Source: an uncultured Methanosarcinales archaeon (GTDB taxonomy: Archaea; Halobacteriota; Methanosarcinia; Methanotrichales; Methanotrichaceae). Taken from it: DNA of 64,000 bases. Of the stretch, positions 33,776 to 43,509 are shown one piece after another. The notes under the pieces were generated by a model, which saw only the letters and a program-made list of their open reading frames with translations, was not told the DNA's origin and did no database searches. The translations under genes and the position numbers were made by a program. The stretch covers positions 32,001 through 96,000 of the forward strand of contig CAWJKV010000012.1 in NCBI GenBank assembly GCA_963843555.1. Reading direction: 5' to 3'. Position 1 is the first letter of the stretch, and every line of letters begins with the position of its first letter.

Positions 33776-35023
33776 CTATTTCTCAGTGGGATCGCTGATC
33801 CTGCCCATGAAACAGTATGCAGCCCGTTTCGCCATCTGTTATCATGAATATGAAGGGATGATCGGCACGGAAGACGGGCGTCCTTTGGACCCGCGAGCAA
33901 AGACCCCTGCTCATGATGACCGCCGTGGCTGCTGCCGCCTCAGTTCCTTCTTCGTTCACATCGACATAAGCCTGATGGATGACCTGCGCTTATGAACAGC
34001 CCTCCGCCTGGCACTTATCCCTGAGAAGTCAGCGTCTGCGAATGCGGTCGGCATCCCCAAATTCCGCAGGTTATTTTTCAAGAAGTATTTGGCATCGATC
34101 TTGAACTTGGGTATGTAGACATCGACGCGCTGCAGCGCTAAGCCCTCTCTCCATTGGGCGAGCTTTTCCACAGTGAGAGAACTCTCCAGCGAGGCGATGT
34201 CATGCTCTTTGGGCAGGAGAATAATCATGGAGAGTTTTTCCCCCAGGTAAGGCATCTGCAGCATCTGCATGTCTTCTGTCTCCAGGTAATTGAATTTGGC
34301 ATCTTTGTCAAGCCGTCCTCATCATGGGTACAGTGACAGTCCTGCCGTCGCTCGTATGAAAATTCTCATCCCGTGTCAGGCTCTTGTCAAACTCTTTAAC
34401 CCATGTGCCCTTGAAATATATGGCGTTGGTCAGGACCAGACAAGTCGAAGAATCGATATAGGGGGGAGGAATGAGATCTTTTATCTTTTGGGAGGTCTTC
34501 TGCTCCACCCAGGAGTTTATGGTCTTTCTGGCTTCTTCGCTTGCTCCTATGAAATCCAGGTTCGTCGCCCTGGCATGATAGATGCGATCCATCAGATCCC
34601 TATACCCATCGAGCAGCGAGAAGCCGTTATCCACCCAGAGGGCGTTGGCAGTAGAGAGGATATAGCCGGATATCGTTGGCATTGAATCGCTGGTCGAGCG
34701 AGGAAAACGACTGCCTTCTGACTGCTCTCATCGCCGGAGAAATGCAGCACGGATCGCATCTCATCTGCTGTCTTGCCTCTCGCCCCTTCATAGGTCATGG
34801 CCAGGGCCGTGTTCAGGCTCCAGGGAGAGAAGAAGATGTTCTCATCTTTGCCTGCCAGCTCCCGATACATATCCAGAGCAAAGCGATTGCTGGCAATTGC
34901 AGTCTGTTCTATGTCTGTCAGCTGCACTTGAACAGACGGCTCAGATTTCATATTTTCCTGCCCCAGAGCGGGCTTAATTATCAGGATGAAGATAAACAGA
35001 ATAAGAAAAAGCTCCAAATGCAT
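33776..35023 (-). CDS. Secreted serpin, split by several frameshifts
   Basis: NIFFSPWS, INSWVEQKT, LVLTNAIYFKGTW, IPKFK, hinge EEGTEAAAAT, FRADHPF, MGRISDP. Confidence 0.92.
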
Positions 35024-36707: not shown

Positions 36708-38120
36708 TTATTTCTCGATCCACTTCCCATCCTTCTTCAGCCAATCGTCCATATCAGCTGCCGCGATCTTGCCTTCGCCCATGGCGCTGATCACAGTTGC
36801 GCCGCCGCTGATGATGTCTCCTCCGGCCCAGACGCCCTCCATTGTCGTTCTCCCCCGTCCATCCACCACCAGCGTGCCCCATTTGGTGGTCATGAGCTGG
36901 GGAGTGCTGGAGGCGATGAGGGGATTGGGAACTGTGCCGACAGCAATGACCACCGTGTCCACATCCACAGTATGCTCCGAGCCCTTCTTCACCCGGGGGC
37001 TTCTCCGGCCTGAGGCATCGGGCTCGCCCAGCTCCATCTCAACCACCTCCATGGCCTTGACCATGCCCCTATCGTCGCCTGAGAACCGGGTGGGATTGGT
37101 GAGGAAGTCGAAGATCACCCCCTCCTCCATGGCGTTCTCCACCTCTTCCAGACGGGCAGGCATCTCCTCACGAGAGCGTCGGTAAATGACATGCACCTCA
37201 TCCGCTCCCAGGCGCATAGCAGAGCGGGCGGCATCCATGGCCACGTTTCCGCCTCCGACGACGGCCACCTTCTTGCCCTTTTTTATGGGCGTATCGTATT
37301 CCGGGAACTTGTAGGCCTTCATCAGGTTGACCCGGGTGAGATATTCGTTGGCAGAGTAAACGCCGCTCAGGTTCTCGCCGGGAACATTTAGAAAGCGGGG
37401 CGCGCCTGCGCCGATGCCCAGGAATACTGCGTTATAGCCACCTTTGAGCAGCTCCTCCACCTGGATTTGTCTGCCCACCACAGAGTCAAGCTCCAGGTCG
37501 GCGCCCAGGGATTTGACGTACTCGATCTCCGACTTGACAATGTTCTTGGGCAGGCGAAACTCGGGAATGCCGTAGACCAGGACGCCTCCGCCATCATGCA
37601 GCGCCTCGAAGATGGTGACTTTGTGGCCCATTCTGGCCAGATCGGCTGCACAAGTGAGGCCAGCTGGGCCCGAGCCGACGACTGCGACGCGTTTGCCGGA
37701 GGGAGGGGCAACTTCACATACAGGGCACTTTTTCGTGGTCTGCTCCCAGTCGGCCACATAGCGTTCCAGACGGCCTATGGCCACAGGCGCCCCCTTCTTG
37801 GCCAGGATGCAGCGGCTCTCGCACTGCACCTCCTGGGGACAGACCCGGCCGCAGATTCCGGGCAGGCTGTTCTTTCTCTTGAGGGACAGGGCCGCCTCAG
37901 GCATATCCCCGTCCCGCAGGGCGCGAATGAAGACCGGAATCTCCACTCCCACCGGACAGCCTGCAACGCACTTGGGCTTCTTGCATTGAAGACATCTGCC
38001 AGCCTCTTCTGCCGCCTGCTCTGGACTGTATCCCAGGGCAACCTCCTGGAAGTTGCGTTTCCTCTTCTCGGGAGATTGCTTGGGCATCTCCACCCGGCTT
38101 AAATTTATCTTGCTTGACAT
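36708..38120 (-). CDS. NfnB/SudA-type (GltD-like) NADPH-dependent bifurcating flavoprotein large subunit
   Basis: CLQCKKPKCVAGCP, CGRVCPQEVQCE, GSGPAGL, YGIPEFRLPK, GGGNVAMDAAR, YRRS, AGGD. Confidence 0.92.
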   Translation of the reverse strand: MSSKINLSRVEMPKQSPEKRKRNFQEVALGYSPEQAAEEAGRCLQCKKPKCVAGCPVGVEIPVFIRALRDGDMPEAALSLKRKNSLPGICGRVCPQEVQCESRCILAKKGAPVAIGRLERYVADWEQTTKKCPVCEVAPPSGKRVAVVGSGPAGLTCAADLARMGHKVTIFEALHDGGGVLVYGIPEFRLPKNIVKSEIEYVKSLGADLELDSVVGRQIQVEELLKGGYNAVFLGIGAGAPRFLNVPGENLSGVYSANEYLTRVNLMKAYKFPEYDTPIKKGKKVAVVGGGNVAMDAARSAMRLGADEVHVIYRRSREEMPARLEEVENAMEEGVIFDFLTNPTRFSGDDRGMVKAMEVVEMELGEPDASGRRSPRVKKGSEHTVDVDTVVIAVGTVPNPLIASSTPQLMTTKWGTLVVDGRGRTTMEGVWAGGDIISGGATVISAMGEGKIAAADMDDWLKKDGKWIEK

Positions 38121-38428
38121 CTCTTCTGCACCGCGCCTCTGTGGCTAAATTATCTTATTGCTGATTATACTTATGCTCGGAGAACCCTGGATGTCTCCTT
38201 TCCATACATCTTTTCCAGATCCTGTGCCCTCAGACGGACCTGCAGATATAAATAAGATAATGCCTGTCGCGGGCTTCCTTGAAGAAGCATTTAAATCTAT
38301 CCCTAGAAGATGGCTGACCCAGAACATTTTCCGACGAGGCACACCGTTTTGGAACTCTGCCGGTGATTCCTTTTAGAGGAACGTTCTAATACAACCAATC
38401 CTCATCATTATTCGGCGCGGTTGGAAAC

Positions 38429-41179
38429 ATGTCCGAGATTAAACTGACCATCGATGATCGAGAAATCCTGGTTCAGGAGGGTTCCACGATTCTGGAAGCA
38501 GCCCGCAAGGCCGGCTCTTAGTGCCAGCACTTTGCCACCACCCAGACCTCAAGCCCATCGGCTCCTGCAAGCTGTGCATCGTCTCTGTAAAAGGCCTGGA
38601 CCATTACCCCGCAGCCTGCAATACCCAGGCGGAAGAGGGAATGGTGGTGGAGACCAGGACAGAAGAGCTACAGGAGATGAGAAGACACACCCTGGAGATG
38701 CTCTTAGCCCTTACCAACCATCCCACCAGCTGCCTGTTCTGTGATAGGAAAGACGAATGCAATGACCTGCGCGAGTGCATGAGAAAGTTCCCTGTGACGG
38801 TAGGCTGCAAGTACTGCCCCAAGAACGGCGAATGCGAACTGCAGCAGGCAGTGGAGTTCGTGGGGCTGGAAAAAATCAGATATCAGATCTCTTTTAAAAA
38901 TATGCCCGTCTTTGAGAGAGCCTTTCTTCGATCGCAATTACAATCTCTGCATCCTGTGCAGCCGTTGCGTGCGAGCCTGCCAGGAGGTGAGGGGCGAAGG
39001 CGTTCTCACCAGCAACCCCGATTTTCACCGCATGCACTGGATAGGCCCCGAGTCTCTGCAGGACTCGGACTGCAAGTTCTGCGGAGCATGCGTGGATATC
39101 TGCCCGACGGCTGCCCTCTACGCCCGATTTGAGAAATGGCAGAGGCCGGAAAAGACCATCTCGACCATCTGCCCCTACTGCGGCGTGGGCTGCCAGATAG
39201 AGGTGGGCGTCCTGGACAACCGGCTGGTTAGGGTAAGGGGCAAGAGGGACAACCTGCCGAATTTTGGCCAGCTCTGCGTCAAGGGCCGCTTCGGCCTGGG
39301 CTTCGTGGATAGCCCGGAGCGTCTCACTGTGCCTCTCATCAGGAAGAATGATAAACTGGTGCCGGCGACCTGGGAGGAAGCACTGGAATTGGTGGCCGGA
39401 AAATTGAATGGCTATAAAGGCGACAGCTTTGCTTTCCTATCGTCGGCCAAGTGCAGCAATGAGGAGAACTATCTGGCCCAGAAGTTCGCCCGGCTGGTTA
39501 TGCAGACCAACAACGTAGATCACTGCGCCCGGCTCTGCCATGCCTCGACCGTATCCGCCCTGGCTCTCGCTTTCGGCAGCGGAGCCATGACCAACTCCAT
39601 TTCGGAGCTGGCGGATGCCGGATGCATATTCATCATCGGCTCGAACACCAGCGAGCAGCATCCCGTCATCGCCCTCAAGATAAAAGAGGCGAAAAGGAAG
39701 GGTGCCAGGATAATCGTCGCCAACCCCCGCTGGATCGACCTCTGCAAGATCGCGGACGTCTGGCTGCGGCAGACTCCGGGAACGGACGTGCCCCTCGTCC
39801 TGGAGATGTGCCGCATAATTCTGGAAGAGGGGCTAATGGACGAGAGCTTCATCTCGGAGAGAACGGAGGGCTTTGATGATTTCAAGGCCTCCCTCTTGAA
39901 GCTGTCCGGATCGGACGCGGCGCGCATTACGGGCGTGAATTCGGAGCTCATCCGAGATGCTGCCCGAATCTATGCCAGGGGCAATCCCTCTTCTATAATC
40001 TATTCCATGGGCATCACCCAGCACTCTCATGGCGTGGATAACATCTTTGCTCTCGCCAATCTGGCCATGATGACCGGGAATGTGGGGAAGCCCTCCTCGG
40101 GCATCAATCCCCTGAGAGGCCAGAACAATGTGCAGGGCTCCTGCGACATGGGAGCTCTTCCCAATCTTCTGCCGGCATACCAGGCCGTGACCAATCCCGA
40201 TCTGAGAGGGAAATTCGAGCAGGCCTGGGGAGCGGCTCTGCCGGAAAATCCCGGTCTCACCGTTGTCGAGATGATGGATGCCGCAGCGGAGGGCAAGATT
40301 CGGGCCATGTACATTATGGGAGAAAATCCAGTTGTCAGCGATCCAGACAGCAGTCATGTGATAGAGGCCCTGAAATCCCTGGATTTCCTGGTAGTGCAGG
40401 ATATCTTCCTCTCCGAGACGGCTGCATTGGCGGACGTGGTCCTGCCGGCAACGTCCGGCCTGGAGAAGGACGGAACCTTCACCAATACGGAACGCCGGGT
40501 GCAGAGGATCAGGAAGGCCCTTGACCCCGTCGGTGAGTCCATGCCCGACTGGATGATCCTGTGCGCTCTGGCCGGTCGCATGGGCTGGGACAGCCAGTTC
40601 AGCTATGACGACCCCGGCCAGATCATGTCTGAGGCGGCAAAGCTCGCTCCCAGCTACGGTGGCATAAGCTATGAGCGGCTGGAGGGCGACGGGCTGCAGT
40701 GGCCCTGCCCCAACGCTGAGCATCCAGGAACCCAGTACCTGCATAAAGGCCAGTTTACAAGGGGCAAGGGCAAGTTCAATGTCGTCGACTACCGGCCTTC
40801 CATGGAGTTGCCCGATGAAGAGTATCCTTTTATTCTCACCACAGGCAGAGTTCTCTGCCAGTATCATACCGGAACCATGACGCGAAAGGTGGGCGACCTC
40901 AACCTTCTCAGAAATGAGGAGCTGGTGGAGATGAATCCGCAAGATGCTCTCAGGTTGAGCATTGAAGACGGCGAGCTGATAGAGGTCAAATCCCGCCGCG
41001 GAGCAGTCCGGGCCAAAGCCAGGACCACAGAAAAGTCGCCTGCCGGCGTAGTCTTCATGACCTTCCACTTCTCAGAGACGCCCACCAACGTTCTTACCAA
41101 TCCGGCCTTGGACCCCATCGCCAAGATCCCGGAATTCAAGGTATGTGCCGTGAAGCTGAATAAGATTAGAGGAGGCTAG
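38429..41179 (+). CDS. fdhA: Mo/W formate dehydrogenase alpha subunit with N-terminal Fe-S domains (frameshifts near 38520 and 38911)
   Basis: 2Fe-2S CHHP..GSCKLC, CILCSRCVRAC, CKFCGACVDICP, CPYCGVGC, HCARLCH (Cys, not Sec), LRGQNNVQG, GTFTNTERRVQ, PEFKVCAV. Confidence 0.92.
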
Positions 41180-41181
41180 AG

Positions 41182-42120
41182 ATGTACGAGATCATAACCA
41201 AGGAGACTGTAGCTCCCAATATCATTTACATGAAACTGAAAGCTCCCAAGATTGCGGCCACTGCCAGACCGGGTCAGTTTGTGATCATAAGAGTGGACGA
41301 GCGTGGGGAGAGAATACCCATGGGCCTGGCCGGCTGGGATGAGCTGGAGGGCACAGTGGACATTGTCTTCTACGTTTTGGGGACAAGCACGGCCAAGCTA
41401 TCCACGATGAAAGAAGGCGAATCAGTGGCCAACATCGCCGGACCCCTGGGAAAACCCACCGAGATCGAGAACTTCGGAAGAGTCATCTGCGCCTGCGGTT
41501 GCTTTGGGGCCGGCCCATCACTGCCGCTCATAAAGGCCCTCAAGGAGAAAGGCAACTATGTGATAACGGTCGTGGAGAGCCGCGGCCCTGATTTCGTTTT
41601 CTGGAAGGATAAACTCAAAGAGTATAGCGATGAGATTCATGTTGTGACGGGCTGCGGCAAGACCGCCTGGGCCAATGATTTCATAGAGCAGGAGCTGCAG
41701 TCCGGAAATAAGATCGACAGGATCTTTGCTCATGGCTGTCCCTTCATGATGAAGGTATCCTCGGATGCCTCACGGGCCGCGGGTGTAGAAACGATCGTCA
41801 GCCTCACACCTCTCATGGTGGACGGCACGGGCATGTGCGGTGCCTGCCGGGTGGAGGTGGACGGGAAGACCCAGTTCGCCTGTGTGGACGGTCCGGATTT
41901 CGGAGGCCACTCTGTCAACTGGGATGGGCTTGTTCTGCGGCTGCGCCAGCTTATTCCGGAAGAGGACAGATCCTTCAATCTTTGGGAGAGGGATAACTGG
42001 CATAAGCTGATGGACAGCAAAACCAAGAAGAGCTTCAATCCGGCAAAGAGAAGGACTGCAGCCGAGCTGGAACATCATGAGGGCCACAGCCACGGTGGCT
42101 GCAGCTCCGCCGGGGCCTGA
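41182..42120 (+). CDS. NfnA/SudB-type FAD/2Fe-2S small subunit with atypical motifs
   Basis: PGQFVI, GERIP, GPLG, MVDGTGMCGACRV, FACVDGPDF; His-rich tail. Confidence 0.9.
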   Translation: MYEIITKETVAPNIIYMKLKAPKIAATARPGQFVIIRVDERGERIPMGLAGWDELEGTVDIVFYVLGTSTAKLSTMKEGESVANIAGPLGKPTEIENFGRVICACGCFGAGPSLPLIKALKEKGNYVITVVESRGPDFVFWKDKLKEYSDEIHVVTGCGKTAWANDFIEQELQSGNKIDRIFAHGCPFMMKVSSDASRAAGVETIVSLTPLMVDGTGMCGACRVEVDGKTQFACVDGPDFGGHSVNWDGLVLRLRQLIPEEDRSFNLWERDNWHKLMDSKTKKSFNPAKRRTAAELEHHEGHSHGGCSSAGA

Positions 42121-42390
42121 ACTGCTTTTCCGGCGGATCCAAGCGGCCGCCAGAATGAAGAATCTTGCAGCTTGAATGAAGATTAAATCAAGGAATGCAG
42201 ACTGCCGGGGGCTGGACTTGCATATAGAAGAGTTTCTCACGGGCGTGCTCAAGCGTCACGCCCCTGCCCAATCATGAGACCCATTGCTGCCTTCCTGAAA
42301 TATTCGATTCTAAATAAGATGAAGTTCTATTTTTCCGTCCATAGAAACTTTTCATGATTCTTTTTATTTTACATTATGCTTCAAATGGAT

Positions 42391-42440
42391 TCATAATTTT
42401 TCACAATATTTCATAATTCTTCATAACTTTTCACAATTCT
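42391..42440. repeat. Five tandem 10-bp repeats (TCAYAAYNNT) upstream of the FNT gene
   Basis: TCATAATTTT TCACAATATT TCATAATTCT TCATAACTTT TCACAATTCT. Confidence 0.85.
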
Positions 42441-42593
42441 GCTGACTGCAACCGCAATCCTTTTACACAATTCCGCCAGCACGAGTGGCCATCCTGCGGG
42501 CCGCCTTCGAAGCAAAGCGATTTGGTTCATCCAGTCCCCAAACAAGCTTCAATCGCAAGAATTCCAGGCTGCCCGTTTTAATGGAGGGAGAAT

Positions 42594-43509
42594 ATGGCAT
42601 TCAAAATCCCCGCTGATATCGCCAAGGCAGCGATCGCTGCCGGATGCACGAAATGCAACATAACCTGGCAAAAGCTGCTGGTGCTGGGCTTTCTGGCCGG
42701 AGCTTACATCGCCTTCGGAGCCCTGTTGAGCGAGATCGTGGCTGGAGGCCTGTCCAACGGCACGATCACAGGTCCTGATGGCGCCATCTGGAAGATCGCT
42801 CTGCCGGCAGGCCTCGTAAAGTTCGCAGCGGGTGCAGTGTTCCCTGTGGGACTCATGCTGGTAGTGATTGCCGGCTCTGAACTCTTCACGGGAAACTGCA
42901 TGTTCGCACCCATAAGCGTACTGAACGGAGAGGCTCCCATCAAGGGTCTTCTTAAGAACTGGTCAATCGTCTATCTGGGCAACTTCCTGGGATCTATCTT
43001 CGTGGCCTATTTCCTGGCATACCAGTGCGGATTTTTCGATAGCCTTCCCTGGGCGGGCTGGGCGGCGACTGTGGCCAACACCAAATGCGGCCTGGACTTT
43101 GGCACTGCATTCCTGCGGGGAATAGGCTGCAACTGGCTGGTCTGCCTGGCGGTCTGGCTGGCCATAAGCTCGGAAGATGTGATAAGCAAGATCTTCGCCT
43201 GCTGGTTCCCTATCATGGCATTCGTCGCCATCGGCTTCGAGCACAGTGTGGCTAATATGTTCTTCATACCTCTGGGCATCTTTGCCGCCAACGATCCGGC
43301 CATTGCATCCAATCTGGCCACTGCGGGTGTGGCTACTGCAAACCTCGCCGGCGGCGTGGGATGGTACAATTTCTTCGTCACCAATCTCATTCCCGTCACA
43401 CTGGGCAACATCGTGGGGGCGGCACTCTTCGTGGCTGCACTCTACTGGTATGTCTACCTCCGGGGACCTCTTTGCGTGCATGAGCCCCGAGAAGACCACG
43501 AAGAAGTAA
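42594..43509 (+). CDS. fdhC: Formate/nitrite transporter (FdhC/FocA family); true end probably 43509 after an indel
   Basis: [57 protein letters not shown]. Confidence 0.92.

Follow-up and report, generated by a model that had tools for sequence, protein, structure and literature searches.

The window analysed here is a 64,000-nucleotide stretch of DNA from an uncultured Methanotrichaceae archaeon (C12:32001-96000 of genome G000, an assembly of 18 contigs that is 82% complete). It carries a locus in which a formate dehydrogenase gene, fdhA, stands between the two genes of an NfnAB-type ferredoxin:NADP+ oxidoreductase. We find that this module is real and conserved and, apparently, undescribed. 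Its small Nfn subunit belongs to a remodelled subfamily, termed NfnA* below, with an altered NAD site, and FdhA, NfnA* and NfnB probably form a complex of some kind. That formate replaces NADH on the high-potential arm of this complex, with coupling to ferredoxin, is a proposal to which we give about an even chance. The module is not unique to this lineage: it belongs to a widespread nuoEFG-nfnA*-nfnB system.

The large-subunit gene nfnB (NfnL), which encodes an intact protein of 470 aa and is the sole nfnB of the genome, occupies 36708..38120 on the minus strand. A divergent intergenic region of 308 bp (38121..38428), which would hold the promoters of both nfnB and fdhA-nfnA*, separates it from fdhA (38429..41179, plus strand). 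The gene for NfnA*, the remodelled NfnS (41182..42120, plus strand), starts 2 bp after the fdhA end at 41179, and a channel gene follows on the same strand. These coordinates confirm the layout described in an earlier note on this DNA, which had proposed a three-subunit FdhA-NfnAB enzyme. Its statement that the locus has no FdhB or NuoF gene also holds. FdhB-type genes lie elsewhere in the genome, on C7 and C16, and a NuoF gene lies on C7. A sigma-70 promoter scan was set aside as not applicable to archaea.

Conservation of the arrangement was assessed in 105 Methanotrichales genomes, 77 of which match the window-type nfnA at E 1e-150 or better, and in a synteny sample of 33 loci of that type (two sets, 19 + 14). 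The survey, which the earlier note had called for, shows the arrangement to be conserved: fdhA lies immediately upstream of nfnA in 31/33 loci, the broken or partial copies of G009 and G020 included, far beyond chance. The nfnB gene is divergent in 27 of the 33; in 4 a contig end cuts it off, and in the other 2 it is unlinked. In G005 and G022 no fdhA stands between nfnB and nfnA, but each has an unlinked fdhA paralogue with the same head and an intact catalytic motif. Across the 105 genomes, matches were obtained for NfnB in 99, for the FdhA head in 101 and for NuoF in 73. The nearest named homologues of the window NfnA come from Methanothrix and other Methanotrichaceae.

The window NfnB aligns with Thermotoga maritima NfnB (4ylf_B, E 1e-169) and with 5jca_L. 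Its cluster cysteines (two [4Fe-4S]), the Glu ligand E119, the flavin-N5 arginine R189 and the Tyr-Arg-Arg NADP motif (R314/R315, NADP 2'-phosphate) are invariant in 62/62 homologues. This motif set agrees with the bifurcation features given by Liang 2019 (PMC6405883; here and below, published papers are cited for the parts of them that were covered).

FdhA is a cytoplasmic Cys-type Mo/W formate dehydrogenase with a NuoG/BfuA-type head, about 916 aa long in relatives. It scores 835 bits against TIGR01591 (cut-off 666). The catalytic Cys-His pair (39536..39541, plus strand), aligned with FdhF 7qv7 and FdsA 6tg9, and the active-site Arg are both found in the alignments; judged from these, the formate site is intact. 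The first 240 residues are predicted to fold like a NuoG/FdsA/HydA head (pLDDT, the predicted local confidence, 86; TM-score 0.80 to 6tg9 and 0.77-0.80 across the FdsA, HydA and NuoG heads), with one [2Fe-2S], one His-ligated [4Fe-4S] and two [4Fe-4S] clusters of the NuoG/BfuA type. On top of the standard His/Cys3 cluster site, the head bears three more Cys, the triad. The resulting extended N5-type motif (38719..38835, plus strand; a His and six Cys) is a predicted extra metal site that marks the partners of NfnA*. The idea that NfnA* always supplies the fourth ligand of the triad finds no support as a general rule: an internal Cys 117 is found in 26/79 heads, the window type included.

NfnA* keeps the Asp/Cys3 [2Fe-2S] motif and the flavin adenine dinucleotide (FAD) barrel, with ligands D214, C219, C222 and C234 present in 79/79 rows. 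Compared with solved NfnA structures, Gly is replaced by C107 (at 41500), Gly by E132 (at 41575) and Pro by C186 (at 41737, all on the plus strand), and the loop 155-160 is rewritten. The flavin-N5 Thr is Gly in 20/79 NfnA* rows, those of the window type among them. From general knowledge of the FNR fold, we take the changed loops to line the NAD site, and the substitutions suggest that NfnA* has lost NAD binding. The earlier note had treated NfnA as an ordinary small subunit, and that part of its claim does not stand. The altered site indicates where formate would enter.

The phylogenetic comparison with NfnAB suggested in the earlier note was run with FastTree on 174 NfnA rows, the motif columns having been dropped. 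A branch with support 98 separates all 101 NfnA* rows, together with 8 rows that lack the Cys, from 65 standard rows, including the paralogue on C2 and Methanosarcinaceae-level relatives (family f3). The tree had no outgroup root and no approximately unbiased test, and the direction of gene flow and the order of events are therefore not shown by it. Two Methanotrichales loci, L205:1161-6130 and L206:2510-7526, have co-oriented nfnA-nfnB-fdhA with an NfnA without the Cys and an FdhA without the triad; their NfnA branches within the NfnA* side.

The distribution of the subfamily was assessed in species genomes with the C186 motif as the search pattern, of which C107 and E132 were not part. Invariance at the motif positions within alignments A3 and A4 is circular, because both had been filtered for those motifs, and co-occurrence was judged from the C186 scan instead. 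At least 120 loci were obtained, 80 of them with flanks, from Bacteroidota, Desulfobacterota, Planctomycetota, Verrucomicrobiota, Hydrogenedentota, Chloroflexota, Asgard archaea and Methanotrichales. Among the matches listed, to which all counts in this paragraph refer, C107 is found in 117/117 readable loci and E132 in 119/119. A NuoG-type head lies directly upstream of NfnA* in 55/58 loci with a 3.5 kb flank, all 55 heads bearing the extra Cys triad. Directly downstream, nfnB follows in 60/75, and nuoF is found upstream in 40/49. In 21/80 flanked loci the head and NfnA* are fused into a single protein. Such fusions among the 50% cluster representatives are P0123, P0125, P0140, P0143, P0173, P0176 and P0182, one fusion representative being labelled Promethearchaeia. 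Two C-terminal [4Fe-4S] motifs typical of BfuB are retained by 38/45 full NuoF partners, and six NuoF partners are NuoF::GltD-like fusions. A formate site in the upstream subunit occurs in Methanotrichales loci and, outside them, only in L115 and L148.

A reverse test started from the head alignment, which retrieved 79 metagenome loci, 39 of them with 3.5 kb downstream. Of the 12 heads with the triad, 8 are followed by NfnA*, whereas none of the 27 heads without it has an NfnA after it. These are corrected values (raw counts 8/11 and 0/28, L212 having been moved to the triad group), and no P value is claimed for them because the metagenome loci are related to each other. Heads with both the triad and the internal Cys, and no NfnA* nearby, were seen at L220, L228, L236, L237 and L241; the gene after the L237 head is one that we take to be FNR-like.

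The system may be read as the three-subunit variant of a nuoE-nuoF-nuoG-nfnA*-nfnB enzyme that is widespread and whose reaction with NAD(H) would fall to NuoF. The corresponding five-gene operon, its NuoG with the triad and without a formate site, was observed across L076-L155 (e.g. L082, L086, L107 and L127). It is the usual layout outside Methanotrichales, recurring in numerous phyla of anaerobes and in Asgard archaea, and it may hold two bifurcation sites. In these operons NuoF would supply the NAD site, so that NfnA* needs none and would pass electrons to the NuoG head. In window-type Methanotrichales loci, which lack nuoEF, the same subunit ends in a formate site, and formate is therefore the remaining terminal. 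NuoF matches are absent from 32/105 Methanotrichales genomes, including G063, G015, G054, G055 and G076 (99% complete); these named genomes and all seven genomes of genus g22 retain NfnA* and the head. The clearest case for formate as the terminal is g22, in which 7/7 genomes encode a single NfnA (of the * type), a single NfnB and a single triad head, and gave no match to NuoF. Taken together, synteny, the head::NfnA* fusions and the near-complete genomes without NuoF back the three-subunit partnership of the earlier note, in which the NfnA was presented as a standard one.

The large-subunit FAD of NfnSL has three exchange partners: NADP(H), with which it trades a hydride; ferredoxin, with which it trades one electron over two [4Fe-4S] clusters; and NAD(H), with which it trades one electron over the small-subunit [2Fe-2S] and FAD (PMC6405883). 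We propose a soluble FdhA-NfnA*-NfnB enzyme in which formate would stand in for NADH on the high-potential arm of this flavin bifurcation. The FdhA head would use its additional Cys triad to dock on the face of NfnA* that formerly served NAD. From formate, electrons would pass over Mo/W and the Fe-S chain to the NfnA* FAD, the [2Fe-2S] cluster and the NfnB FAD, where each formate electron would join one low-potential ferredoxin electron to reduce NADP+. The net reaction would be formate + 2 Fdred + 2 NADP+ -> CO2 + 2 Fdox + 2 NADPH (Fdred and Fdox, reduced and oxidised ferredoxin). Both bifurcation and the direction of the reaction are predictions.

Energetics were computed with -420 mV for CO2/formate, -380 mV for NADPH and -500 mV for ferredoxin (Schut 2022, Table 1, PMC9304861), assuming 10 mM CO2. 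At 1-100 micromolar, formate has a potential of -302 to -361 mV, close to that of NADH. Direct reduction of NADP+ is endergonic in this range (+15 to +4 kJ) and becomes favourable near 1 mM formate, whereas the ferredoxin-coupled reaction yields -8 to -20 kJ. Micromolar formate would provide biosynthetic NADPH at half the ferredoxin cost, and the reverse direction, a formate valve, would be possible only with ferredoxin poised near -420 mV.

A broader synthesis, which we hold tentatively and at a little below even probability, is that the NfnA* clade traded its NAD site for a protein-protein Fe-S socket, into which formate dehydrogenase plugs in Methanotrichales. A cluster is possibly shared between the two new NfnA* Cys and the Cys triad of the partner. 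In many anaerobes the socket would join NfnAB to a second bifurcating core (NuoEFG/Bfu). NfnSL would then not be a one-reaction family, and the window enzyme would be the first formate-dependent Fdred:NADP+ oxidoreductase. An AlphaFold2 model of the natural fusion P0123, which is not from Methanothrix, gave a predicted TM-score (pTM) of 0.66 with a quarter of its residues disordered; this exceeds the roughly estimated value of about 0.45 for two independently placed domains and lends weak, indirect support to the proposed FdhA-NfnA*-NfnB enzyme. A complex prediction for the FdhA head, NfnA* and four 4Fe-4S ligands, run without controls, scored 0.02 against a mark of 0.32 and was counted neither way.

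Several observations weigh against the proposed formate-fed enzyme. The fdhA gene is frameshifted in this assembly. G005, G022 and L140 keep nfnB-nfnA* without an intervening fdhA, and the unlinked fdhA paralogue of G005 lies 680 bp before hdrA. In L205 and L206 the pairing of nfnA, nfnB and fdhA comes with neither signature. Nor is the triad confined to partners of NfnA*: 4/12 metagenome loci that have it lack NfnA*. The [2Fe-2S] Cys of the FdhA head, which normally faces NuoF, is still conserved. The single NfnB might partner the product of the orphan standard-type nfnA on C2, and G000 has in its F420H2:NADP+ reductase an alternative source of NADPH. Finally, no part of NfnA is less conserved than its NAD site (Liang 2019, PMC6405883).

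The complex might form and yet work as a non-bifurcating formate:NADP+ oxidoreductase, resembling SfrAB with an added relay, with ferredoxin no co-substrate. We regard this as rather unlikely, while noting that fusions and synteny prove partnership, not coupling. The NfnB-like domains of NfnABC are non-bifurcating (PMC12018979), Gly in place of the flavin-N5 Thr in a quarter of the NfnA* rows, the window type included, would suit such an enzyme, and the direct reaction does turn favourable near 1 mM formate. It is the retained machinery that speaks for coupling: R189, the distal cluster and the proximal cluster with its Glu ligand do not vary among the NfnB homologues. Electrons that enter through the NfnA [2Fe-2S] cluster use the high-potential arm, and in NfnSL this arm depends on an electron from ferredoxin (PMC6405883); at micromolar formate the direct reaction is uphill.

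An unlikely alternative places the partner of FdhA in trans: NuoE/NuoF of a predicted F420-Bfu operon, giving a five-subunit, double-bifurcating enzyme, or HdrABC, or FdhB. G000 does have one nuoE-nuoF pair, followed by an Fe-S/FrhB fusion (C7:7850-11763), a layout that corresponds to the predicted F420-Bfu (Schut 2022, PMC9304861). The invariant NuoF-facing [2Fe-2S] Cys of the head and the frequency of nuoF upstream of NfnA* among the loci listed across phyla would fit a NuoF partner. That operon, however, has its own third subunit, and the NuoF-less genomes named above, g22 among them, keep NfnA* and the head. As to HdrABC, a triad fdhA precedes hdrA at one unlinked paralogue, L196, whose layout resembles an expressed fdhA-hdrABC locus read as FDH-HdrABC (Nobu 2020, PMC7382037), but an hdrA neighbourhood is found in only 1/6 unlinked paralogue loci. 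An FdhB encoded elsewhere, the partner that the earlier note had named as telling against its proposal, is made less likely by the genome, in which each FdhB gene adjoins its own fdhA.

Mere co-location or decay of the locus, with NfnB working with the standard NfnA paralogue and fdhA a pseudogene, likewise has a low probability in our estimate. It draws on the frame of fdhA as assembled, which, compared with five relatives in which the gene is one open reading frame of 915-928 aa, lacks one base near 38520 and has one too many near 38911. It also draws on the broken or partial fdhA in G009 and G020 and its absence from the locus in G005 and G022, and on the standard nfnA on C2 (C2:289299-290186, the second of two nfnA genes in G000, with no nfnB nearby). 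The frameshifts are probably assembly errors, because the identity of the two fdhA pieces to G001, 91%, equals that of nfnB. Assembly indels are further indicated because other genes of G000 are split too: frameshifts divide 5/64 matched rows, fdhA included (a slightly high denominator, some rows being antisense shadows), and one of the five is presumably a GlmS-like housekeeping gene. Both fdhA genes adjoining fdhB on C7 and C16 are also split. Among contigs of relatives at 85%, one that is about 92% alike lacks the extra base at 38911, at a depth of 3.7 that is too thin to decide on the frameshift; a sequencing-run search found no read set of this strain and listed no RNA run. The head::NfnA* fusions and the gene inventory of g22 argue for partnership rather than chance proximity.

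It is very unlikely that FdhA instead feeds the low-potential arm at the NfnB ferredoxin site while NfnA* uses F420 or a disulfide through its new Cys: although the standard potential of formate, -420 mV, resembles that of ferredoxin (PMC9304861), P. furiosus NfnII has an altered NAD site with an unknown acceptor (PMC6405883) and fdhA directly follows nfnB in L205 and L206, all 21 fusions among the matches listed join the head to NfnA* and none to NfnB, in Methanotrichales class II loci the head and nfnA* stay side by side while nfnB is unlinked, and formate at 10 micromolar lies near -330 mV.

With formate entry through NfnA* as the preferred reading, the module would work like NfnSL yet is no standard member of that family. 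It shares with NfnAB/NfnSL (T. maritima 4YLF/4YRY, P. furiosus NfnI 5JCA) the NfnB motifs, the NfnA fold and the Asp/Cys3 [2Fe-2S] site, but its NAD-site residues are Cys/Cys/Glu and its flavin-N5 Thr is Gly in the sequence test. Moreover, NfnSL is an adjacent two-gene heterodimer, whereas the window genes are divergent and split by fdhA, which implies a third subunit; the label of plain NfnAB was rejected on these grounds. P. furiosus NfnII/Xfn (5VJ7) likewise has an altered small-subunit NAD site and no NAD-dependent activity (PMC6405883), but its substitutions are different, and while its acceptor is unknown, the fused or adjacent NuoG-type partner points to the substrate here.

The Bfu family (Fdh-Bfu: HylCBA-FdhF2, type 1 Fdh-Bfu; Nfn-Bfu such as StnABC 8OH5 and T. 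sibiricus NfnABC 9N5U) shares the NuoG/BfuA-type head and ties formate or NADP(H) to ferredoxin by bifurcation, as proposed for the window. No BfuB/BfuC (NuoF/NuoE-like) gene is present in the locus, however, and none was found in many carriers. Stn/Nfn-Bfu enzymes have a GltD-like domain inside the NuoG-like subunit and no NfnS, whereas the window NfnB is separate, has both clusters and is joined by an NfnS-type subunit; the label Stn was rejected because NfnB and NfnA are encoded separately. SfrAB of Geobacter sulfurreducens is a two-subunit enzyme not known to have formate activity. It likewise combines a NuoG-like subunit with a GltD/NfnB-like NADPH subunit (PMC7483475), but at the window locus the large subunit carries a formate site and is accompanied by a third subunit of the NfnS type as a conserved neighbour. 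The F420-dependent FdhAB of methanogens (9T1S, 7BKB) shares the Mo/W catalytic domain, but the window FdhA has about 240 extra N-terminal residues and no adjoining FdhB (PF04422), and the FdhB genes of G000 sit with other, short fdhA genes; the label F420-FdhAB was rejected accordingly.

Neither an FdhA-NfnAB enzyme nor NfnA* turned up in a literature search, with subscription papers outside its coverage. In the parts of Schut 2022 (PMC9304861) that were covered, section 5 included, no Bfu is linked to a complete NfnAB. Liang 2019 describes four Nfn patterns, none with a formate dehydrogenase in the parts covered, and presents methanogen Nfn as unstudied (PMC6405883). Nor is the module described in the covered parts of PMC9853277, PMC11406978, PMC5736913, PMC5109826, PMC10128006 and PMC12072023. 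Formate use by Methanothrix has been described as controversial (Nobu 2020, PMC7382037), and for this question, as for methanogen Nfn, the module offers a specific and assayable reaction.

Such a role could explain why formate enzymes are retained in organisms not known to grow on formate, and it predicts that formate can subsidise biosynthesis without supporting growth. If true, the proposal would give the bifurcating enzyme that is best understood a new third substrate and a modular docking site, and would mean that a globally important aceticlastic methanogen puts formate to biosynthetic use. The module also draws attention to a widespread Bfu-plus-Nfn system of five genes, possibly with two sites of bifurcation. 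A formate/ferredoxin-driven source of NADPH would be useful in C1 biotechnology.

The FNT-family (formate/nitrite transporter) channel gene (42594..43509, plus strand; 304 aa in relatives) starts 473 bp downstream of nfnA and is a looser neighbour of the module, lying inside the fetched stretch at just 23/33 related loci. A 1-base shift near its 3' end, probably also an assembly error, puts the stop at 43509 out of frame as assembled. This shift, the fdhA frameshifts and the FdhB and NuoF genes elsewhere in the genome were absent from the earlier note. In 6/14 loci of the second set, the locus is flanked by what we take to be a glutamate dehydrogenase gene, often accompanied by a glutamate-synthase-like one, a hint that the NADPH may serve nitrogen assimilation.

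Four further fdhA genes are found in G000: two beside the FdhB-type genes on C7 and C16, one on C2 and one on C17. From their translations, the neighbours of the C2 copy are presumably glutamate-synthase-like and those of the C17 copy Fwd/Fmd-like. The fdhA-fdhB blocks C7:2631-6551 and C16:258-4141 are near-identical, share the same downstream gene and lie near two contig ends, possibly as an assembly duplication. FdhD is present in the genome, as is a MoaA-like gene below the cut-off. To our knowledge, Methanotrichales are usually regarded as being without hydrogenases; a search for the NiFe-hydrogenase large subunit gave a match of only 68 positions in G000 and long matches in 4/105 genomes (G052, G106, G042 and G102).

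Two fdhA paralogue types, in tandem or unlinked, occur at L032, L033, L042, L196, L197, L199 and L201-L203. Tandem paralogues are 84-89% identical in the head and 52-53% in the Mo/W domain, a pattern consistent with a common docking partner, and one that suggests interchangeable catalytic subunits. A second Methanotrichales class (L049, L070, L071, L073, L074 and L083) has nuoE-nuoF-nuoG(no formate site)-nfnA* with nfnB unlinked, and in genus g18 nfnA* is duplicated in tandem (L060:5067-7971). Within the window, a presumably serpin-like gene lies in three pieces at 33956-35023, consistent with assembly indels.

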